A DNA stretch of 64,000 bases, taken from the NCBI GenBank assembly GCA_041657405.1, contig JBBABX010000002.1:108915-172914 (forward strand), in the 5' to 3' direction. This DNA comes from Minisyncoccota bacterium (GTDB taxonomy: Bacteria > Patescibacteriota > Minisyncoccia > Phycocordibacterales > XYD1-FULL-46-19). The position numbers were made by a program, and so were the translations under genes. Of the stretch, positions 5,986 to 48,151 are shown in pieces; the first letter of the stretch is position 1; every line of letters begins with the position of its first letter. Below the pieces are notes generated by a model that worked only from the letters and a program-made list of their open reading frames with translations, made no database searches and was not told the origin of the DNA.

Positions 5986-8449
5986 TATTAATCATTAAAT
6001 TCAAATCAGGTTCTTTAAATTCAATTTTATCACCCTGGGTTAAATTTCCCCCAATAACTGACTCGGCAATTTTTTGCTCTATATTATCTTGAATAAAACG
6101 CTGCATCGGCCTAGCTCCAAAAACTTCATTAGCCCCTAAGGTGGCTACTGTTTTCACCAGATAATCGTTGACCAGAAGCTCTAGACCTTGTTTGGTTAAA
6201 CGTTTACTCAACTTTACCAACATCAATCGGGAAATCTCTTCTAATGCTTCTGAGGATAAGGGTTCGAAAACAATAGTCGCATCAAAACGGTTTAAAAGTT
6301 CTGGTCGAAATATTCCCTTGGTGACAATATAATTTATAAGATTATTAGCAGTATTTTTTTCTTCGTCTTTTTGTTTAAAGTTTTTCCAAATTAATTCTGC
6401 GCCCGCATTAGAAGTTGCAATAAAGATTATATTTCTGGCATTAACTTTTTTGCCCCTCATATCAGAAAAAACACCTTCATCCAAGATTTGTAAAAAAAGA
6501 TTCAACACTTCACGGTTGGTTTTTTCAAATTCATCCAATAGTAATACACCATAAGGATTTTCACGAAGCATATCTACCAAAATTCCAGTTTTGCCAGTTT
6601 CAAATGAACCAATTAATTTAGTTAGGGCTTCTTCATTTTGAAATTCGGACATATCTAAACGTAACAAGCTGGATTCGCGACCAAAAATAACTTCAGCCAA
6701 AGCTTTGGCTGTTTCGGTTTTACCGACCCCAGTCGGTCCCAAAAAAAGAAAAGATCCAATCGGTCGATTAAGGTTGCGAATTCCAGCTCGAGACCTTCTT
6801 AAGGCTCCCGAAATTGACTTAATCGCTTCAATTTGTCCGACCACTCTTTTATGTATTTCAATTTCTAAATTTTGCAATTTGGTTCGTTCTTCAACTCCAA
6901 TTTCTCCCAGAGGGGTATTAGTTTTACTGGAAATAAATTTTTGGACATCATTTTTTTTAATAATTTTGAGTTCAAGTTTTTGGGCCCAAGGAATAATTTC
7001 TGCGATTAAATCAACAACCTTATCACTTGATGAACTTTCGGCAAAATAATTATCAGCTCCCCAAATTATTTCTAGTAAAGATTGGTAGGTAAAAAATAAT
7101 TTATATTTAGCTTCTATTTGCCAAACGGTTTCTTCCAAACCATGAATGAGCATCTCTGAATTTATTTCTTTGACAAAAATACGGTCAAAGAAATTCATCA
7201 ATTCAATATTAACAGCCAAAAAACGATGAAAAATATCATTAGTAGTAACGGCAACAATCTGGAAAGCATTACTTTGCAAATATTCTTCAACCAAACTCAA
7301 GAAAGAAGACCCTAAAGTTTGAAAACCAATCATCAAATTATAGATATCATCAATCACCAAAATTATATTGCCCGCCTTTTGAGCTTCGCTAAAAATTTTA
7401 AGCAATTCTCGTTCAGCATTGGATCGATCTTTAAAATTAGATAGAAAAACAGAAGCATTAAACAAAACCACCCGCTTATGTTCCAAAACTGGTAGGATAT
7501 TACGATTTTGAATTTTTCTCACCAAATGCCAGGCAACATCCAAGGACTCATCTCGCGAGTTACCAACCAAAATTGCGTTTGCCTCCTTGTCTTTAGCTAA
7601 AATATTTTCTAATTGAGTTATTTCTAAAGAATGAAGGGAATAATCATGACCAATACTAGAATAACGCAAACCTTGCGCCATATCCCAACTATATTTATCT
7701 AAAGTAAAAGTAGCACCAAACCCCCAATCTTTAGCCAAACCTGGAATTTTATTGAGATTAGATTTAGACCACCAACGTTTCGAAAATTCACCAAATTCAA
7801 TCCGATAAACAACCCAGTCAGTTGCTCCCAAAAGTTCTTTTTCAATAATTCCAAATTTTTTCAAAAATTGTGCGAAATCTGGATTTTTCTTGTATAAAAA
7901 CAAAACTAAAGACCGTAATTTTAAAACTCCATCAGTCAAGGTTCGCGGAGGAATTTCACTTACCAACTGTCGATTAATTAAAAATTCTTTCTGTGCTTCT
8001 TCTTCTATTCCTAACCGTAACAATATTTCTTTACCAACCGCCGAAAGGAAAAAACCACGCAAGGCATCTCCTTTTTCGGCCAAGAAAAGAATTCGGCCAA
8101 CGGTGATACTAAAAATATCATCGTTTGTATAACGATTCAAAGCAACATTCTCAAAATAATAAGAATCATTAAAATAAAAATCTAATAATTTAGATGAAAA
8201 ATAAAAAGCCAAACAAATAAAAGTGGCGCCCCAAAAACGTGGTGCCAAAGATGCCCAGACCGCAAAAAATGGAGCAAGAAATAAATTACCAAAAATTTCA
8301 AAAGTTAAAATTGGCAACAACAAAAAAAGAACTAGGGTCCCGCTTATATTTATTAACCAATTTCGTTTTTTCTCACCAATTAAAGAATCCAAAACTAAAA
8401 TTGGATAAAGACGGCTTGATTTTAGATATGCTTGCAATTTATTTGACAT
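5969..8449 (-). CDS. membrane-anchored ClpA/ClpB-like AAA+ ATPase paralogue with degenerate D1
   Basis: N-terminal 2-3 TM helices. D1-like region has GNSRDES in place of Walker A. D2 is intact: FLFLGPTGVGKTETAKALA, LLLDEFEK and sensor/arginine-finger region GARPMQRFIQ. Confidence 0.7.
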   Translation of the reverse strand: MSNKLQAYLKSSRLYPILVLDSLIGEKKRNWLINISGTLVLFLLLPILTFEIFGNLFLAPFFAVWASLAPRFWGATFICLAFYFSSKLLDFYFNDSYYFENVALNRYTNDDIFSITVGRILFLAEKGDALRGFFLSAVGKEILLRLGIEEEAQKEFLINRQLVSEIPPRTLTDGVLKLRSLVLFLYKKNPDFAQFLKKFGIIEKELLGATDWVVYRIEFGEFSKRWWSKSNLNKIPGLAKDWGFGATFTLDKYSWDMAQGLRYSSIGHDYSLHSLEITQLENILAKDKEANAILVGNSRDESLDVAWHLVRKIQNRNILPVLEHKRVVLFNASVFLSNFKDRSNAERELLKIFSEAQKAGNIILVIDDIYNLMIGFQTLGSSFLSLVEEYLQSNAFQIVAVTTNDIFHRFLAVNIELMNFFDRIFVKEINSEMLIHGLEETVWQIEAKYKLFFTYQSLLEIIWGADNYFAESSSSDKVVDLIAEIIPWAQKLELKIIKKNDVQKFISSKTNTPLGEIGVEERTKLQNLEIEIHKRVVGQIEAIKSISGALRRSRAGIRNLNRPIGSFLFLGPTGVGKTETAKALAEVIFGRESSLLRLDMSEFQNEEALTKLIGSFETGKTGILVDMLRENPYGVLLLDEFEKTNREVLNLFLQILDEGVFSDMRGKKVNARNIIFIATSNAGAELIWKNFKQKDEEKNTANNLINYIVTKGIFRPELLNRFDATIVFEPLSSEALEEISRLMLVKLSKRLTKQGLELLVNDYLVKTVATLGANEVFGARPMQRFIQDNIEQKIAESVIGGNLTQGDKIEFKEPDLNLMINNEQEK

Positions 8450-18740: not shown

Positions 18741-18788
18741 AAGCTCTTCAAGTATATTTAAATATACTTGAAGAGCTTAATTTTTTGA
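18741..18788 (+). terminator. rho-independent terminator
   Basis: Perfect 19-bp inverted repeat AAGCTCTTCAAGTATATTT/AAATATACTTGAAGAGCTT followed by TTTTTTT. Confidence 0.7.
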
Positions 18789-23587: not shown

Positions 23588-24793
23588 TCAAAATCGATGA
23601 TATTTAACAATAATTTCATTCAAACTTCTAATAAATTTTTGAGCTTCGCTTATTTTGGCTTCCCGCGGCAAACTAACTCTAACCGCCCCCTTTTGTCTCT
23701 CTTCATTATAACCAAGAGCCCTCATTACCTGAGAATCAGCATCGACTCCCAAAGAACAGGCGCTACCAGCTGAAATAGCGAAACCTTTTTTATCCATTTC
23801 CAAAACTAATTGCTCCCCTTCCAAACCCTCGACTGAGAAATTTAAAATATTTGGCAATCTCTCCATCCCAGCTAAACTACTGTTAATTTTAACCTCTGGA
23901 ATTTTTAATAATTCTTTCGCTAAATAATCGCGAATTTTTGTTAATTTTAGGATTTCTTTTTCTTTTTTTAATTCACAAATCTCTAAAGCTTTGGCTAAAC
24001 CAACGATTGCCGGAGTATTATAGCTGCCAGACCGACGTCCAGTTTCTTGCCCCCCTCCTAATATTATTGGCGCCAACTCAACTCCCCGTCTAACATAAAG
24101 AAAACCGACACCTTTAGGACCAAAAATTTTTGAACCATTAACAGTCATCAGATCCACCCCTAATTGTAAGACGTTCAGATTAAGAAAACGTGGTGCTTGG
24201 CACGCATCAATATGCAAATAAGGAAATTCAGTTTTTTGTTCTTTGCGCCAACGACGAATCACTTTAACCACTTCTTTAATTGGTTGAATTGCGCCAATCT
24301 CATTATTGGCATAAATTATTGAGAGCAAAAAAGTTTCTGTCTTCAAATTTTTTTCGACTTCTTTAGGATTAATCAAACCATTCTCTGAAACTGGCAAATA
24401 AGAAATTTGGTAGCCCTCCTTCTCTAAATAATGAAATGGTTCAAGCGTTGCTTTATGCTCAATCATTGTGGTGATAAGGTGACCAGTTTTTCCATAGGCA
24501 CGCGCAGTTCCTAAAATTGCCAAGTTATTGCTTTCTGTTCCGCCACTAGTAAAAATAATTTCCGCTGGTTGTGCCGCAATCAACCTGGCAATAATTTTTC
24601 GCGCTTCGAACAAATTCTGCTGCGCCAAAATTCCTTCTCGATGAAGACTGGAAGGGTTGCCAAAATCTTTAGCGGCTTTGCTCATCACTTTTTTGACAAC
24701 TGGTTCAAGCTTGGTTGCGGCCGCCGTGTCCCAATAATATCTGCGCTTTTTATTTCTAAAAATATTTCCCCGAAATAACTCCATAGTTGGCAT
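23588..24793 (-). CDS. cysteine desulfurase (aminotransferase class V; IscS/NifS-like)
   Basis: SGGTESNN; PLP lysine region NGSKIFGPKGVGFLYVRR; active-site Cys loop SAGSACS. Confidence 0.8.
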   Translation of the reverse strand: MPTMELFRGNIFRNKKRRYYWDTAAATKLEPVVKKVMSKAAKDFGNPSSLHREGILAQQNLFEARKIIARLIAAQPAEIIFTSGGTESNNLAILGTARAYGKTGHLITTMIEHKATLEPFHYLEKEGYQISYLPVSENGLINPKEVEKNLKTETFLLSIIYANNEIGAIQPIKEVVKVIRRWRKEQKTEFPYLHIDACQAPRFLNLNVLQLGVDLMTVNGSKIFGPKGVGFLYVRRGVELAPIILGGGQETGRRSGSYNTPAIVGLAKALEICELKKEKEILKLTKIRDYLAKELLKIPEVKINSSLAGMERLPNILNFSVEGLEGEQLVLEMDKKGFAISAGSACSLGVDADSQVMRALGYNEERQKGAVRVSLPREAKISEAQKFIRSLNEIIVKYHRF

Positions 24794-27304: not shown

Positions 27305-27376
27305 GGCCTGGTCGCCAAGTGGTAAGGCAAGGGTCTGCAAAACCCTTATACGGCGGTTCGATTCCGCCCCAGGCCT
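27305..27376 (+). tRNA. tRNA-Cys(GCA)
   Basis: Acceptor GGCCTGG/CCAGGCC, anticodon stem AGGGT/ACCCT with loop CTGCAAA, T-arm GGCGGTTCGATTCCGCC. Confidence 0.85.
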
Positions 27377-27461
27377 CCCGCAAATGTAAAATTTGAGTTA
27401 AAAATGTAGGTTAAATATTATCTTTACATCTTAATTTTTTTATTTTACATTTGTTTATAAA

Positions 27462-27543
27462 GCCCGGGTGGTGGAATCGGTATACACGCACGACTTAAAA
27501 TCGTGTGGAGAAATCCGTGCGGGTTCGAGTCCCGCCCCGGGCA
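27462..27543 (+). tRNA. tRNA-Leu(TAA)
   Basis: Acceptor GCCCGGG/CCCGGGC, anticodon stem CACGA/TCGTG with loop CTTAAAA, long variable arm, T-loop GGTTCGAGTCC. Confidence 0.85.
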
Positions 27544-27613
27544 CAAATTTTAGTTTTACTTTTTAGTAAAACTCCTTGACAAAAATTTGACACTAAAATT
27601 TTTTAATCAAAAT

Positions 27614-27655
27614 ATTTGATAACAAAGTGTGCGGCCGCATACTTTGTTATCAAAT
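27614..27655. repeat. 42-bp near-perfect palindrome with GCGGCCGC core (copy 1)
   Basis: ATTTGATAACAAAGTGTGC-GGCC-GCATACTTTGTTATCAAAT, with one arm mismatch. Shares its core with the copy at 28651. Confidence 0.8.
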
Positions 27656-27684
27656 CTTAAGTTTGTTATAATTAATTTTTAGTT

Positions 27685-28200
27685 ATGAGTTTAACTAGCG
27701 AAATACTCTTTTTTCTTTCTAATAATCCTGGAAATTATCGAGAGTTAAGATCTCGTCTTTCCAGTTCCTATATTGATGACAAATTAAGAAGCAAACAATA
27801 CGAAAAACAAAAAACCAGAGACGATGATAAATCTTTTAGGACTCTTTTGTCTAACTTAAAGAAAAGGGGTTACCTAAAAAATAACAAGGGAATTTGGTCG
27901 GTCACCCCAAAAGGTCTAAAAAGAACCAAAGAATTAAAAGGATTTACGAATTATTGTAACTATCCAAAACTAAAAAATTGTAGTGGAAAAATAATAATTT
28001 CTTTTGATATTCCCGAATTAAACCGATCAGCACGTTCTTGGCTCAGACGAGCCCTCTATAATTTAGACTTTACAATGTTGCAACATAGTGTTTGGTTGGG
28101 ACCTTCTCCTTTGCCAGAAGAATTTATTATTGACCTAAAGATAAAAGAAATATTTAAATGCTTAAAGTTTTTTACCGTGAAAGAAACTGAGATCGTTTAG
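27685..28200 (+). CDS. winged-helix DNA-binding protein with C-terminal Cas2-like domain (VapD/Cas2/PaaX-C fold)
   Basis: N-terminal wHTH-like region GYLKNNKGIWSVTPKG. C-terminal KIIISFDIPELNRSARSWLRRALYNLDFTMLQHSVWLGP matches the Cas2 pattern (YDI...RRR..L...G.R.Q.SVF). Confidence 0.45.
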   Translation: MSLTSEILFFLSNNPGNYRELRSRLSSSYIDDKLRSKQYEKQKTRDDDKSFRTLLSNLKKRGYLKNNKGIWSVTPKGLKRTKELKGFTNYCNYPKLKNCSGKIIISFDIPELNRSARSWLRRALYNLDFTMLQHSVWLGPSPLPEEFIIDLKIKEIFKCLKFFTVKETEIV

Positions 28201-28263
28201 TTCCAGAAATAATCTTAACAAAAACAAAACGTTACTTTGTTATTAAAGCAAACTCCTTATTGG

Positions 28264-28347
28264 TGCTGGGGAGAGGACTCGAACCTCCATGGATTTTACT
28301 CCACTAGCTCCTAAGGCTAGCGCGTCTACCAATTTCGCCACCCCAGC
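28264..28347 (-). tRNA. tRNA-Leu(TAG) (CCA encoded at 28261-28263)
   Basis: Reverse complement: acceptor GCTGGGG/CCCCAGC, anticodon stem CTAGC/GCTAG with loop CTTAGGA, long variable arm, T-loop GGTTCGAGTCC. Confidence 0.85.
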
Positions 28348-28403
28348 ATTTAAATTTGTGAGCAAGGCATGCTTCGCTTGTCCAGGCACTTGCTTCGCTC
28401 GTG

Positions 28404-28476
28404 TCCGCCCAGAGGGATTCGAACCCCCGACCGTTTGCTTAAGAGGCAACTGCTCTACCGACTGAGCTATGGGCGG
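28404..28476 (-). tRNA. tRNA-Lys(CTT)
   Basis: Reverse complement: D-arm GCTCAGTCGGTAGAGC, anticodon loop CTCTTAA, T-loop GGTTCGAATCC. Acceptor CCGCCCA/TGGGCGG gives an unusual C1-G72 pair, so the exact ends are uncertain by +/-1. Confidence 0.75.
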
Positions 28477-28650
28477 ATAAACTGACTAAAAACAAAACCA
28501 AGATAAATAAATCTTGCCATAACGAAACTGGAACTATTCGCCATAAACATTCTGATATTTTTGAAAAACTATGGACAAATAAACACCACCATATTATTAC
28601 AAAAAACAAGTAAAAAGCCAAGATTTTTAAACTTTCTACTTTATAAACTA

Positions 28651-28700
28651 TTCTTTTTGATAACAAAGTGTGCGGCCGCACACTTTGTTATCAAAAAGAA
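28651..28700. repeat. 50-bp perfect palindrome with GCGGCCGC core (copy 2); candidate bidirectional terminator
   Basis: TTCTTTTTGATAACAAAGTGTGC-GGCC-GCACACTTTGTTATCAAAAAGAA. Both arms end in T/A runs. Confidence 0.8.
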
Positions 28701-28861
28701 TAACACCAATCTTTATTAAATTCTAAAAAATGACTTTCACAACTTTAAACTTTAAAACATTTTAAAAAATATCCCTCAAAATTTAAAAATACACCTAATA
28801 AATACAGTTGTCTCCAAAATCAGCAAAATTTAACCTTAAAATCCTTATTTTAAATCTATAT

Positions 28862-28890
28862 TTGACTTTTTTCGCAAAAAGGTGTATAAT
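28862..28890 (+). promoter_or_regulatory. consensus sigma70 promoter
   Basis: TTGACT; 17-nt spacer; TATAAT. Drives the downstream high-GC 3-gene module. Confidence 0.6.
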
Positions 28891-28972: not shown

Positions 28973-29113
28973 TATGTTATTTTTCCAGATCGTTCTTGGG
29001 TTCGTTTTGATGTTAGTATTGGCGACTATAACCAGTCCTTTATGGCTCTTTTGGCTCGCCAATAATCCGCGTTTCACTTTCATCTCACCGTTCACTACAA
29101 TCCGTGACGGTTA
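28973..29113 (+). CDS. 46-aa hydrophobic membrane peptide
   Basis: RBS AAGGAGG 5 nt upstream. MLFFQIVLGFVLMLVLATITSPLWLFWLANNPRF..., with a single TM. Ends 8 nt before the SPFH-like ORF. Confidence 0.4.
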
Positions 29114-29120
29114 AGCAAAA

Positions 29121-30065
29121 GTGGTCATGCGCGGCGATTCTTTCCAGAAAGTAATCGCGCGAAAAGAAGGGTGCGATGTAATTACACCCCAAAACAAGGT
29201 ATATTACCCAGACAATAAGGTCTGGGATATCGTCCAGAGAAACCCAGAGGCCCCAAGAAAAGAGTCTTTTCTGCAAAAAAATCTGGGACTTTACTGGGTA
29301 GGTATTCCACCCTTTCAGAAACTGTACCATTATAATTTCGGCTGGGTAACCTACAAAGCACCAGAGGGCGAGACGGATCCCCGACCCGTCAAAAGACAAG
29401 AGGAGTTATTCCACATCTATATCAAGGATGCTCTATATTGGGGCACTCTAAAGGAAGCGGAAACTTTTGATAAGCTTCCAGTGGACGTGGAGTTTTTGTT
29501 CACTCTTCGGGTCGTCAATGTCTACGATGCTCTTTTTGAGATACATCGCTATCTCGATGCAATCTTAGACCTGGTTCGACAGCAAGGTAGACAATACGTC
29601 GGCACCAGAACCTACGACCAATTGGTCCAAAAAGAAGGCGACTCAGACCATGAGGGATTCTCTCATGGTGTATACAACCTCGGAACACAAGTAAGAGAGG
29701 AATATGGTGTTAAAATTGTTAGGGCTGACATTCTCTCTATTGACCCAGCTGGTTCAGCTGCTGCTCAATATCGAGAGGCATCAACCGCGGCTTACTTGGC
29801 AGAAGCCAAGAAAATCGCAACCGTCACCGCCGCCGAAGGAGAGGCAAGGGCAACCGAGTTGATCGGAAAAGCACGAGAAAAAGCGCTTAAGGCGCAAATT
29901 CGTGCTTTTGCCGCAAACCCCACCGCCGCTCAGGCAACTCTGAATGCTGAGGCAGCACGGGCAATGGGAATTGAGCATGTCGCCCATGCGGTGACTGCCG
30001 GCATTCGCGCCGGCTTCACTTCTAATTCCGAAGAACCACCGACGCAGCCACCGGCAAATCCTTAA
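29121..30065 (+). CDS. SPFH/band-7 (stomatin/HflKC-like) domain protein
   Basis: GLYWVGIPPFQKLYHY (PG.h.P.i..v pattern), GVKIVRADILSIDPA, and a C-terminal Ala/Glu-rich AEGEARA helix. Local GC (~50%) is well above background. Confidence 0.55.
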   Translation: MVMRGDSFQKVIARKEGCDVITPQNKVYYPDNKVWDIVQRNPEAPRKESFLQKNLGLYWVGIPPFQKLYHYNFGWVTYKAPEGETDPRPVKRQEELFHIYIKDALYWGTLKEAETFDKLPVDVEFLFTLRVVNVYDALFEIHRYLDAILDLVRQQGRQYVGTRTYDQLVQKEGDSDHEGFSHGVYNLGTQVREEYGVKIVRADILSIDPAGSAAAQYREASTAAYLAEAKKIATVTAAEGEARATELIGKAREKALKAQIRAFAANPTAAQATLNAEAARAMGIEHVAHAVTAGIRAGFTSNSEEPPTQPPANP

Positions 30066-30080
30066 GAAGGGAGGAAGATT

Positions 30081-30677
30081 ATGATTGGAGTAGTAATCGG
30101 AGCTGGCAGTTTTCTGTGCCTGGTAGGAATTGTGATAGGTGTAATTTATGTCATCACAAAACCCACCGCGCCACAATCCCAACAATCACCACCTTCTCGA
30201 GAAACACCGGCGACAGGGAGTGGTCAAGGCACCAGAGCAAACAATCTCTTGATGTTGAGTTTGGGCCAAAAAATCACTAGCTATGCCATCGCAGTAGTAA
30301 TTATCGTAGGGATAATTCTAGGGCTAGTCTGGCTAGGACGACCCAAAGCAACAGTTATGCCGTCCAAGCCCCCGATTGCAACAACCTACAAACATGCAGA
30401 TAAGGTGGTTGCCGATGGGGGGCCGTGGCAGAAAACAGAAGAGGTAGATTGGACAAAAGTAAACCCAATTCTTATCCCTAAAGATTGTCAAGGTTACTAC
30501 CTTTACAATCCTGGAGATAGACCCTTCCTAATCTGTCTGCCAGACGGCTCGGTTTTTGAGAGTAACGACCTAAATACAAACTCCCCTAAGCGGTATCTCC
30601 CCTTACTTCCGGGGAAAGAATTGAAATTGGCTTCCCTCACCGGAAAGTCAATGGAAATCACTTTCTACTGGAATTAA
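30081..30677 (+). CDS. two-TM membrane protein with C-terminal extracytoplasmic domain, hypothetical
   Basis: RBS GGGAGGAAG. TM1 at residues 1-25 and TM2 at ~65-90. Cys-containing C-terminal domain. Confidence 0.5.
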   Translation: MIGVVIGAGSFLCLVGIVIGVIYVITKPTAPQSQQSPPSRETPATGSGQGTRANNLLMLSLGQKITSYAIAVVIIVGIILGLVWLGRPKATVMPSKPPIATTYKHADKVVADGGPWQKTEEVDWTKVNPILIPKDCQGYYLYNPGDRPFLICLPDGSVFESNDLNTNSPKRYLPLLPGKELKLASLTGKSMEITFYWN

Positions 30678-30687
30678 TCACAAACAA

Positions 30688-30720
30688 GACCCGACACACA
30701 AAAAGTGTCGGGTCTTTTTA
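30688..30720 (+). terminator. rho-independent terminator
   Basis: Perfect 10-bp stem GACCCGACAC/GTGTCGGGTC with a 7-nt loop, followed by TTTTTA. Confidence 0.7.
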
Positions 30721-30739
30721 ATGGTCATCTTTTACAACT

Positions 30740-30985
30740 CTACCCCGTCAAACCCTCAATCGCACTAACAATAAAATGCATAATGCCATAGACTGAAACC
30801 ATAATCGTCATCCCAACCACACCCCAGGTAATATTACGAATTGCTTGACTACGATCTTCTTTGCCATCTTTAGCACGCCAAAGATATTCCACCAAACCGT
30901 AAAGAAAAAAGATTACCGCCAAGCCAAACATCAAAAAAATGAGGGGATTCAAGATATGAGTCTCAATATTGCGAAGCAAAGTCAT
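30740..30985 (-). CDS. small double-TM membrane protein, paralogue 1 (MVSVxG family)
   Basis: 81 aa, two TM. Conserved C-terminal TM motif MVSVYGIMHF shared with paralogues 2 and 3. Confidence 0.5.
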   Translation of the reverse strand: MTLLRNIETHILNPLIFLMFGLAVIFFLYGLVEYLWRAKDGKEDRSQAIRNITWGVVGMTIMVSVYGIMHFIVSAIEGLTG

Positions 30986-30995
30986 TTAGTTAAAA

Positions 30996-31361
30996 TTATG
31001 GAAGAGGAATATCGGGTACTTGATAGTTAGAAGAACTATCAACTCCAGTTAAATCTTGCAAAAATCCCACCAAGCCCCAAACCGAAACCATCACCGCGAT
31101 AATAATAATCCCCCAGAACATATCTGTCCTAGCCTTAGCTCTCTCATCGCCAGAACTACGCAAAAATTTTAAAAGACCCCACAAAAAATAGACTACGGCC
31201 AGGGCAATAAAGATAACAACTAACCATTGAAGAATCTCACCAACAGCTCCAGCAATCTCTCCAACTTCACCTGAATCACCTTGTAATATCCCCTGCGCTA
31301 AAGCCATAAAAGGCGCAACAGACAAAGCCCAAGGAGCAATTTTAATCATTCGTCTTAACAT
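30996..31361 (-). CDS. small double-TM membrane protein, paralogue 2
   Basis: Signal-peptide-like N-terminus. FLWGLLKFLRSSGDERAKARTDMFWGIIIIAVMVSVWGLVGFLQD is nearly identical in its second half to paralogue 3. Confidence 0.5.
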   Translation of the reverse strand: MLRRMIKIAPWALSVAPFMALAQGILQGDSGEVGEIAGAVGEILQWLVVIFIALAVVYFLWGLLKFLRSSGDERAKARTDMFWGIIIIAVMVSVWGLVGFLQDLTGVDSSSNYQVPDIPLP

Positions 31362-31469
31362 ATATTTAAATTAATAAATTAAACTAATAATTGATAATTT
31401 CTTCGACTACTTTATAATAACTTTTTAATTATAACATTCCTTCTAAACAAATGAAAAGTAATTTTTCTT

Positions 31470-31814
31470 CTAATCCTCGGTATAATCACCCAATTCTCCT
31501 AAAACATTTGGCTGGTCAATATTCCCACTTTTAAAACGGGGGACATTGGGCGGACTAGTTGGAATCGAATCGCCAAAAAACATTTGTTGCAAAAATCCCA
31601 CCAAGCCCCAAACCGAAACCATTACTGTCAAAACAATCACCCCCCAAACCATCATCGTCTTGGCTTTTTCCAATTCAGATTTATCACCCAAACCTGACCT
31701 TAAATATTTTATCAAACCCCAAAGAAATAACGCTACAGCTACTCCAATCAACAAGGCCACCAAAGGTGAAATTACTCCCGTTAAAAAATTATTTATTATT
31801 TGACTAAATGACAT
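31470..31814 (-). CDS. small double-TM membrane protein, paralogue 3
   Basis: FLWGLIKYLRSGLGDKSELEKAKTMMVWGVIVLTVMVSVWGLVGFLQQ; Pro-rich C-terminal tail. Confidence 0.5.
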   Translation of the reverse strand: MSFSQIINNFLTGVISPLVALLIGVAVALFLWGLIKYLRSGLGDKSELEKAKTMMVWGVIVLTVMVSVWGLVGFLQQMFFGDSIPTSPPNVPRFKSGNIDQPNVLGELGDYTED

Positions 31815-31832
31815 AAGTTATTTTAATTATAA

Positions 31833-32288
31833 TTATACAATACTTTGTTCAATCATCACGCCCTCAATCAAGTCATCAGCGGTATTTTTAATAACCTCCG
31901 CAATAACAAACGCTCCCAAAATTATTGCCGAGCCAATCAAAACTCCTTTAATGACTGTGTGCGCTTTTCTGATTTGAGATTCGTTGCCTCTCGCGGTCGT
32001 ATAAAGAAAACCCGCGTAAATAATTGCGATGATGACAATTGTAGTGCCAATTTGCACCATTATCTCAAGAATCAACCCCAAAAGACCTGGTAAATTATCT
32101 ATACCGTCTTTTAGCGGATTGGTAAAAATACCACCACCATCTTCAATAGTTCCGATTCCTTGGCCAGCCCCAGTCCCAACCCCCTGCCCAGCCCCAGTCC
32201 CAATTCCTGTTTGGGCCCAAAGTAAGTTTACGGAAAAACAAAAAATTATTACCAAAATTAAAATCAAAAATAACTTTAAATATTTCAT
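31833..32288 (-). CDS. secreted/membrane protein, paralogue 4 (signal peptide + Gly-rich GTGAGQG repeats + 2 TM)
   Basis: Signal peptide, repeats GIGTGAGQGVGTGAGQGIGT, then YAGFLYTTARGNESQIRKAHTVIKGVLIGSAIILGAFVIAEVI. Confidence 0.5.
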   Translation of the reverse strand: MKYLKLFLILILVIIFCFSVNLLWAQTGIGTGAGQGVGTGAGQGIGTIEDGGGIFTNPLKDGIDNLPGLLGLILEIMVQIGTTIVIIAIIYAGFLYTTARGNESQIRKAHTVIKGVLIGSAIILGAFVIAEVIKNTADDLIEGVMIEQSIV

Positions 32289-32293
32289 ATTAA

Positions 32294-32737
32294 TTATTGA
32301 CCAAAAACTTCTTCAATAACTGCTTGGAAAGCACCTCCACTATCAAAAAATAAACTAATAAAAGTTTTAACAATAGCATAAGCGCCTACCGCCAGGGCGA
32401 CACCAATAATAACATTCCTAAGCATTTCTCGATAAAAAGTAGGGTCTTTCCCTTGAGAAGAATCCCAGATTGTTTTAAAACCAGCCCAAATTATCAAAAT
32501 AGTCGCAATTGGTAAAATAATATAACCAATCACATAATCAAAAGTCTTGCCAACTAATTTTTTTAATTCACTAAAATCACAATCCATTGCACCATCTTCT
32601 CCCGTGCCACAAACAACCAGATGAAATCCTGAATCACCAGTCTGGTTTTCAGCTAAAAGCGTCACCGGCAAAAACAACAAAAGTGAGCAGATAAAAAAGA
32701 TTACGCCAAACTGAATTTTTGGGAGAAATGTTTTCAT
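32294..32737 (-). CDS. secreted/membrane protein, paralogue 5 (signal peptide + Cys pair + 2 TM)
   Basis: Signal peptide. WAGFKTIWDSSQGKDPTFYREMLRNVIIGVALAVGAYAIV has the same architecture as paralogue 4. Confidence 0.5.
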   Translation of the reverse strand: MKTFLPKIQFGVIFFICSLLLFLPVTLLAENQTGDSGFHLVVCGTGEDGAMDCDFSELKKLVGKTFDYVIGYIILPIATILIIWAGFKTIWDSSQGKDPTFYREMLRNVIIGVALAVGAYAIVKTFISLFFDSGGAFQAVIEEVFGQ

Positions 32738-39577: not shown

Positions 39578-39689
39578 CTCAAAATCCTATCAGTAAAAAC
39601 ATTAGCTCGCCAAAATGGCGAGCTAATGTTTTTATAACTTATCAACATCCCTCTTGCTTTTATTTTTCCTTTCTGCTATCATAAAAATT

Positions 39690-48034: not shown

Positions 48035-48151
48035 CAATAGAGAGAGCTAGTTCGAGCACTCGACAAGGGTCGAAACTAGCAAACAAAAGCAAGTCAGAAA
48101 TGACTTGCTTTTGTTGTAGTTTAATACAACGATTTGTGATATAATATTTTC

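Follow-up and report, generated by a model that had tools for sequence, protein, structure and literature searches.

Two long palindromes built on one core, about 1 kb apart and with a small regulator-like gene and two tRNA genes between them, raise the question of whether they end transcripts, mark the ends of a mobile element or are read by the protein encoded between them. They lie in a 64-kb stretch of a contig from a Minisyncoccota bacterium (the window, to which all within-genome counts of sites and gene copies refer). To our knowledge, almost nothing is known of transcription control in Patescibacteria (Candidate Phyla Radiation), which cannot be grown alone. The analysis showed that a site-gene-site arrangement with matching, co-evolving 38-bp sites recurs in about 80 loci of uncultivated Patescibacteria, and that the palindromes are, as judged from sequence comparison, likely the cognate binding sites (operators) of the enclosed protein, a short member of the PaaX family.

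The two palindromes with a NotI-site core (GCGGCCGC), which had been pointed out by an earlier sequence-only reading of the window, were found again by coordinates (Table 1). They have in common a 40-nt core that contains GCGGCCGC, with core starts 1041 bp apart, in line with the spacing of 1 kb given in that reading; its length of 42 bp holds for the first copy, and its 50 bp for the second copy had to be corrected to 54 bp. The open reading frame (ORF) for a protein with a winged helix-turn-helix (wHTH) and a Cas2-like domain, encoding 171 aa on the plus strand, and the tRNA-Leu(tag) and tRNA-Lys(ctt) genes on the minus strand are indeed enclosed between them. Each predicted site in the window is a 38-bp dyad composed of the box TGATAACA, 6 nt, CGGCCG with a conserved base on each side, 6 nt and the box in inverted orientation. 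Four occurrences of the 19-nt arm were counted in the 64 kb, namely in the two palindromes on both strands, compared with 0.01 expected from shuffles; the many dispersed copies of a repetitive extragenic palindromic (REP) element, which the earlier reading had named as the observation that would speak against it, were not encountered in this arm search. Three copies of GCGGCCGC were counted in the window against 0.16 expected, the third one (at 24717) being intragenic and without a surrounding palindrome. Among the 28 CGRYCG centres of the window, no other site-like dyad with symmetric boxes was detected. Palindrome 1 is followed by CTTAAGTTTG on its 3' side. Palindrome 2 reads 5'-TATTCTTTTT[stem]AAAAAGAATA-3' on both strands, and the runs belong to the palindrome itself; of the T-runs that had been described on both sides of this copy, the 5' one is present and the 3' side carries an A-run. 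Palindrome 2 had also been placed between convergent units; the units are in fact divergent, with tRNA-Lys reading leftwards and the Band_7 operon rightwards.

Table 1. Positions in the window of the palindromes, the enclosed gene and the neighbouring features.
Feature	Position	Strand	Description
Palindrome 1, predicted upstream operator	27614-27655	strandless	42 bp, 20/21 pairs, single G·T mismatch at 27629/27640
Palindrome 1, left outer box	27617-27624		TGATAACA
Palindrome 1, centre	27632-27637		CGGCCG
Palindrome 1, right outer box	27645-27652		TGTTATCA
Palindrome 2	28649-28702	strandless	54 bp, 27 perfect pairs; same boxes at 28658-28665 and 28686-28693; centre CGGCCG at 28673-28678
Predicted regulator promoter	27644-27672	+	-35 TTGTTA at 27644-27649, 17-bp spacer, TG-extended -10 TATAAT at 27667-27672; 10/12 matches
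Short PaaX-family gene	27685-28200	+	171 aa; winged helix ~1-85, Cas2-like domain ~101-165, no PaaX C-terminal domain
Downstream-operator remnant	28233-28247	strandless	right half-arm TACTTTGTTATTAAA, 14/15 identical to the right arm of palindrome 1
tRNA-Leu(tag)	28261-28347	-	
tRNA-Lys(ctt)	28403-28476	-	
tRNA-Cys(gca), tRNA-Leu(taa)	27305-27544	+	immediately upstream; in relatives, cassette exchange has its left breakpoint at the 3' end of tRNA-Leu(taa)
Band_7 operon promoter-like site	28862-28890	+	TTGACT-17-TATAAT, 11/12 matches; conserved in L020, L023, L024 and L025

The enclosed protein is a short PaaX-family relative with a winged helix and a Cas2-like domain. Its match to the Pfam family PaaX_M (PF20803, the central Cas2-like dimerisation domain) reached an E value of 2.6e-11 and 43.9 bits against a cut-off of 24. 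Scores for Cas2 stayed below threshold (22.1 bits vs 23.8 in Pfam; 19 vs 24.5 for NCBIfam TIGR01573), and the Pfam wHTH families Mrr_N and HTH_45 gave weak matches under their cut-offs. In the AlphaFold model, with a mean predicted local distance difference test (pLDDT) of 76, residues 3-73 form three helices (H-H-H) and a beta-hairpin wing, and residues 101-165 form a beta-alpha-beta-beta-alpha-beta domain, the beta-1 motif of which, FDIP, contains the conserved Asp D108. The best fold matches among solved structures were E. coli PaaX (8a39), the PaaX-like protein Rv0674 (3kfw), PadR-type winged helices and Cas2 proteins. The protein terminates at residue 171, directly past the Cas2-like domain, and the C-terminal helical effector domain, which in PaaX binds phenylacetyl-CoA, is absent; the PaaX equivalog model TIGR02277 was failed by a wide margin (16.8 bits vs a cut-off of 264.55), indicating a short relative and not a PaaX orthologue. 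The family to which it belongs comprises 4866 clusters at 50% identity (E <= 1e-3), and an identical protein is assigned by its source annotation to a Candidatus Paceibacterota metagenome-assembled genome. No paralogue was detected by a profile search of all ORFs of the window, which returned the gene itself only, and Pfam and NCBIfam searches revealed no transposase or recombinase domain in the protein. A phage or defence origin was also considered and ruled out, as no relatives or sites were found in IMG/VR viral contigs, no PHROG phage family matched the protein and the PADLOC defence models gave weak Cas2 matches only.

A scan of metagenome contigs yielded 80 further homologous loci with protein identities of 33-84% (compared loci are labelled L007, L008 ... 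L090). For 69 distinct loci, the 260 nt upstream of each gene were compared with the 360 nt downstream by the best ungapped match, with shuffled flanks as the null. The median match score was 21 for the observed flanks and 8 for the shuffled ones (null maximum 13), with 63/69 loci beating the null 95th percentile and 54/69 beating the null maximum. The matched element was always of one kind, consisting of an outer box, about 6 nt, CGRYCG with a conserved base on each side, about 6 nt and the inverted box. The outer box varies among loci (TGTTAACA, TATATACA, TATTAACA, TGATAACA and others), and CAATTG replaces the centre in a few of them. Loci whose protein is 84% identical to that of the window (L008-L011) have the same two palindromes, the second one directly after the stop codon and before tRNA-Leu(tag); a 60%-identical protein is flanked by two copies of a different element, GTCAACAAGAGTGACGGCCGTCACTCTTGTTGAC, and proteins of 47-51% identity by pairs with imperfect centres. 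The module of the family is thus site-gene-site, and the tRNA genes that are enclosed in the window lie outside it in the relatives. One locus (L040) has two downstream sites 96 bp apart (1236 and 1332) in addition to the upstream site. The neighbours of the module are housekeeping genes, named from their N-terminal sequences: IF-2/RbfA/tRNAs, lepA, cysS-dnaB, valS and ligA-trpS. Its location is stable within sub-lineages, and both orientations relative to lepA are found in different lineages. None of the lineages examined has fewer than two matched sites around the gene.

The anatomy of the sites was analyzed in 46 dereplicated site pairs, i.e. 92 sites. The boxes (±11-18) showed 88-100% dyad symmetry and 78-100% identity between the two sites of a locus, compared with 59-71% and 52-78%, respectively, for the spacers (±5-10) and with background levels of both for the flanks (±20-24). 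The invariance of the centre in these statistics is partly by construction, as the site census demanded CGRYCG; the same centre was recovered independently by the unbiased flank comparison. At position ±17 the consensus holds 0.17 bit, yet this position is 89% symmetric and 78-87% identical between paired sites, indicating that the sites match within a locus and differ from locus to locus. The sites, their geometry and their linkage to the gene family were seen directly in the alignments. Asymmetric centres (CGACCG/CGGTCG) were considered as orientation marks and rejected, since same and opposite orientations both occur, as do mixed CGATCG/CGACCG pairs; tolerance of transitions is sufficient to explain them and there is no evidence for programmed inversion. 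A general role of the sites as promoters of neighbour genes was rejected as well, an ORF start within 140 nt (co-directional downstream or divergent upstream) occurring in fewer than half of the loci and at varying distances.

Whether the symmetry belongs to DNA or to an RNA hairpin was assessed from the mismatches. Perfect palindromes over ±19 account for 7 of the 92 sites, and most of the others carry 1-6 mismatches. Those in the spacers comprised 34 G·T, 42 A·C and 116 other combinations, showing no enrichment of wobble pairs. Boxes and spacers alike were more symmetric than column-shuffled controls, and several types of Watson-Crick pair were seen per position. The scarcity of perfect sites and the lack of a wobble bias place the symmetry at the level of DNA. 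A known RNA family was excluded for the palindromes by an Rfam search, in which nothing except the four tRNAs scored above threshold and the sub-threshold matches to microRNA precursors were generic hairpins.

The sites also overlap promoters, which were called as consensus matches with no mapped start sites. In the window, the predicted -35 of the regulator lies within the right arm of palindrome 1, and the ATG follows 12 nt past the -10 with no Shine-Dalgarno sequence; the same promoter layout was observed in L008. The centre of the upstream site is located 26-30 nt before the ATG in 22 of the 46 loci, again without a Shine-Dalgarno sequence, and the hexamer at -12 to -7 of these loci is -10-like (A2 and T6 in 15/22; TG two bases upstream in 11/22). 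The right box in about half of the family is accordingly a -10-like element 7 nt ahead of a leaderless ATG, which would put a leaderless promoter inside the site and the site outside that mRNA. On the sequence evidence, the imperfect symmetry and the overlap with consensus promoters favour a putative protein-binding dyad over a terminator hairpin.

The sites co-vary with the protein. The identity of the base at ±4, adjoining the centre, follows that of residue 114, which lies in helix 1 of the Cas2-like domain (codon 28024-28026 in the window): in statistics that ignore phylogeny, Lys114 went with G at 45 of 56 half-sites and Arg114 with A at 97 of 112, and the single Ala case with C. This association recurs in several separate 60%-identity clusters. 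The box positions co-vary best with residues 49 and 52 of the winged helix. The pattern hints that the Cas2-like domain may contact DNA next to the centre, and it fits a dimer laid along the site in the order wHTH, Cas2-like dimer, wHTH. The window protein itself departs from the rule, with Arg114 and G at ±4; given this exception and the neglect of phylogeny, the association between residue 114 and ±4 stays a lead.

Comparison with syntenic relatives changed the role assigned to palindrome 2. The sequence-only reading had treated this copy as one of the pair that brackets the gene; its operator interpretation is strongly supported, and the copy itself turned out to be a conserved third site, which lies between tRNA-Lys and the Band_7 operon in all syntenic relatives. 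Palindrome 2 has orthologous third sites in L020, L023, L024 and L025, with conserved left and right flanks and differing site types. The downstream site proper has lost its left arm and centre by deletion in the window, leaving the remnant listed in Table 1, and alignment showed that L008, L024 and L012 hold a full site at this place. The third site is of the gene's own type in the window, nearly so in L022-L024, and of the type of another allele in L008/L017-L021 and in L025/L026. A possible target is the Band_7 promoter-like site, with its -35 beginning 160 bp rightwards of palindrome 2.

The module has been exchanged between closely related genomes. To the left of it, 2 of 2337 nt separate L018 from L024; from the exact 3' end of tRNA-Leu(taa), the two carry different site-gene-site alleles, with 54% identical columns. 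L018 and L020 share a cassette that is 100% identical, their left flanks being only ~90% identical. L020 and L024 return to 100% identity ~80 nt rightwards of the third site; L023 and L024 show no difference as far as the third site and drop to 75% identity past it. Across lineages IF-2 and RbfA are 79-86% identical to those of the window, and the regulator is 84%, 61% or 60% identical. As read from these alignments, the cassette is an old polymorphism that recombines among co-occurring strains, and together with the adjoining segments it makes up a recombination mosaic. The breakpoints at conserved tRNA genes fit ordinary homologous recombination and are no proof of site-specific mobility. 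In the same region, L024 carries a 131-bp insertion relative to L023 (3485-3633), on both sides of which 18 bp from the 5' part of tRNA-Lys (GAGCTATGGGCGGATAAA) are present as a direct repeat, and the 3' part of tRNA-Lys is repeated ~170 bp away in L008 (2750-2777 and 2920-2947); these repeats look like recombination or integration scars.

If the palindromes are operators of the enclosed protein, one dimer would occupy each 38-bp site, its two winged helices sitting at the outer boxes and the core of the dimer, formed by the Cas2-like domains, lying across the centre. Binding at the upstream site, which overlaps the promoter, should repress the regulator's own gene; auto-repression, probable on the grounds of this overlap and of the precedent in the family, would be combined with a pairing of sites, as two matched sites are present in every lineage examined. 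Pairing could take place by DNA looping or by cooperative binding, and would enclose the gene and, in the window, two tRNA genes; looping is suggested by analogy with other bracketed regulators. The co-variation and the consensus promoter overlap are directly visible in the sequences; binding, repression and looping are what we infer, and the same would hold for an influence on the tRNA or Band_7 units.

Among the closest known systems is PaaX, the repressor of the phenylacetate catabolon in E. coli and Pseudomonas. It shares with the window protein an N-terminal winged helix and, after it, the PaaX_M Cas2-like domain, and its structure (8a39) was the best solved fold match. In E. coli, PaaX binds TGATTC-N27-GAATCA and represses its own promoter by steric hindrance (PMC9493321). 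The sites described here have a similar geometry, with inverted hexamers ~2.5 helical turns apart (TGATAA-N24-TTATCA vs TGATTC-N27-GAATCA; PMC9493321), and this geometry, together with the ~80 homologous loci and the promoter overlap, lends strong support to the earlier suggestion that the pair could be operators of the enclosed wHTH regulator. Differences are also evident: the window protein is half the size of PaaX (171 aa) and without its C-terminal domain, no paa genes are nearby, and here a conserved CGRYCG element shows co-variation with the Cas2-like domain, two sites bracket the gene and a leaderless promoter often lies in the site. The Cas2-like domain shares with Cas2 of clustered regularly interspaced short palindromic repeat (CRISPR) systems the ferredoxin-like fold and the FDIP motif with D108, but it scores below the Cas2 thresholds and is fused to a winged helix; no cas1-like gene was present in the ORF listing of 24-32.5 kb, and no CRISPR-like repeat array was found by a repeat search of 26.5-30 kb.

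Several observations weigh against the palindromes being simply operators. The spacers are more symmetric than a plain two-box operator requires, and in the sub-lineage of the window the palindromes extend to ±27, past any plausible protein footprint, which suggests an extra constraint related to a hairpin or a cruciform. The operator reading does not account for the site downstream of the gene. The mismatched third sites of L008/L017-L021 and L025/L026 may escape the local protein or bind it weakly. The co-variation is confounded by shared ancestry, and the Arg114 of the window protein combined with G at ±4 is an exception to the Lys/G rule.

One competing explanation is that the palindromes act as RNA hairpins, i.e. 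as intrinsic and possibly bidirectional terminators, one of them serving the tRNA-Cys/tRNA-Leu(taa) unit and the regulator gene and the other the neighbour units, with their likeness to each other arising by duplication or gene conversion. They do resemble Rho-independent terminators in being long, G+C-cored, intergenic inverted repeats beside tRNA genes with a G+C-rich stem-loop, and a terminator scan flagged both of them. Palindrome 1 lies 70 nt past tRNA-Leu(taa), other tRNA genes of the window are trailed by long hairpins (18741-18778, 48082-48115), the second site of L008-L011 and L012 is located between the convergent regulator and tRNA-Leu(tag), the upstream site of L012 has A6/T6 flanks, and the symmetry to ±27 exceeds what a protein site needs. 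Palindrome 2, however, stands between divergent units and has its T-run ahead of the stem and its A-run behind it on either strand; with the T-run on the wrong side and no 3' U-tract, it is not a canonical intrinsic terminator, and the earlier proposal of a bidirectional terminator at this copy is not upheld. Moreover, what is conserved in the family is two boxes and a centre and not the continuity of a stem, most sites in relatives are imperfect without a G·U bias, half of the loci have the upstream site ahead of a leaderless start and hence outside the mRNA, and neither a need for shared sequence nor co-variation with a protein is expected of terminators. Termination is thus an unlikely explanation of the sites as such. 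It may be a secondary role in the sub-lineage of the window, with its symmetry to ±27 and the A/T-run flanks of some sites; such a role does not account for the family-wide pattern.

The bracketing by like sites is also reminiscent of transposase and invertase genes, and the module could be a small cassette that moves or recombines. In that case the paired sites would be its ends or the places at which it recombines, the third site, which stands alone, would be a vacant target, and either the Cas2-like protein or a recombinase of the host would act on the sites. As in Hin/hix, the inverted repeats of insertion sequences (IS) and the Acinetobacter pdif modules, a single gene lies between matching ~38-bp sites of inverted symmetry and is exchanged between genomes (L018/L024 and L018/L020). 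Other breakpoints adjoin the third site, orphan sites occur, and the module is found in both orientations relative to lepA in different lineages. What distinguishes it from those systems is the lack of a recombinase or transposase fold and of relatives on viral contigs, its single copy (one gene and two sites in 64 kb), its stable synteny among housekeeping genes within lineages, and breakpoints at tRNA genes and not at sites, the one at the tRNA end being ~100 bp outside the upstream site, as fits homologous recombination. No target-site duplication was seen in the 10-nt flanks of the window and L008-L012. We regard such mobility as distinctly improbable. A miniature inverted-repeat transposable element (MITE) or IS-like element was discarded on the same grounds, with no target-site duplication of the kind that flanks terminal inverted repeats and with sites that are each self-palindromic; the earlier proposal of a MITE that captured tRNAs fails in addition because the pair of sites in the relatives brackets the gene alone, with the tRNAs outside. 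Generic palindromes of the REP type or of bacterial interspersed mosaic elements (BIMEs), or palindromes centred on a restriction site and unrelated to the gene, appear extremely improbable. They would explain long palindromes on an 8-bp restriction-type core, and palindromes with the same core do occur upstream of a gene in a Candidatus Uhrbacteria metagenome-assembled genome (MAG). The sites are nevertheless tied to one gene family in ~80 loci, the two copies in 64 kb compare with an expectation of 0.01, and no other CGRYCG centre of the window has symmetric boxes. A scan of 185,579 genomes, one per species, for AAAGTNTGCGGCCGCANACTTT returned two loci that look unrelated, one being a coding-region coincidence in a Halobacteroidaceae MAG and the other the Candidatus Uhrbacteria locus (L007, MGDU01000026.1), which is also GCGGCCGC-centred; together with the two copies in 64 kb, this led to the rejection of a dispersed repeat of the REP type.

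Beyond operator function, the module might be a self-contained specificity cassette, in which the Cas2-like domain reads CGRYCG, the protein and both sites co-diversify, and old alleles (54% nt identity) are swapped between nearly identical genomes under balancing or conflict-driven selection; its function could be, for example, immunity- or incompatibility-like, or nicking or recombination by the Cas2-like domain on paired sites. We consider this rather unlikely. Regulator genes that lie between their own binding sites several hundred bp apart are known from lambda CI (OL/OR), phage 186 CI (FL/FR) and LacI (O1/O2/O3), and lambdoid immunity regions swap repressor and operators as one cassette, to which the exchange seen here may be analogous. 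The present module differs from them in having no phage context, another protein fold and a single 38-bp site per side in place of triplets.

Some further observations were made around these loci. In the window, the segment to the right of palindrome 2 (28975-32737) contains the Band_7 (SPFH) gene, then a gene for a 198-aa protein without a Pfam match and, on the minus strand, a series of genes for small membrane proteins of two helices that match T4SS_pilin weakly; diverged alleles of this segment (75% identity) are present in relatives. The neighbours of the regulator gene are IF-2, RbfA, tRNA and Band_7 genes, and the G+C content, 32-42% across the window, climbs to 0.41-0.42 at 28-32 kb. 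Other long hairpins of 14-19 pairs and unrelated sequence occur at 18741-18778, 39594-39634, 48082-48115 and 30683-30719; two of them are just downstream of the tRNA-Tyr and tRNA-Glu genes and one follows a gene ending at 30677, and they are probably terminators. In L089 (5125-5253) and L090 (2896-3024), two orphan sites of another type (TATCACATGAAAACGCGAYCGCG...) form a pair, 90 bp apart and with no gene between. The pair follows the end of lepA and precedes a DivIC/FtsB-like gene, at a distance of 2.1 kb from the module, and is possibly the target of another paralogue. In L007, a gene that starts at 6556 is preceded by three GCGGCCGC-centred palindromes within 440 bp (6041-6481). A TATAAT-like promoter follows one of these, AAAAGTGTGCGGCCGCACACTTTT, and the 70 available N-terminal residues of the gene product match no Pfam family. 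L007 may be a distant analogue of the system in the window.

A PaaX repressor and its operator are already known; what is new here is the conserved central element, its apparent reader and the bracketing by two sites. No description of a bracketed PaaX-like arrangement was found in the searchable full-text literature, outside of which most subscription journals lie, and the arrangement seems undescribed so far. For the genomes concerned, it follows as a caution that long perfect palindromes beside tRNA genes should not automatically be annotated as terminators or MITEs. The comparison also points to operators that would contain leaderless promoters, and to a rule of bracketing of the regulator gene by two sites. 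The link between residue 114 and ±4 suggests that the Cas2-like domain of PaaX-type proteins takes part in DNA reading, and bears both on the binding of unusually wide operators by PaaX and on the Cas2 fold outside CRISPR; were the specificity cassette real, the Cas2-like domain would itself be a DNA reader. The 4866 clusters of the family and the predicted sites would provide dozens of natural protein-operator pairs with differing specificity, which can be tested in vitro.

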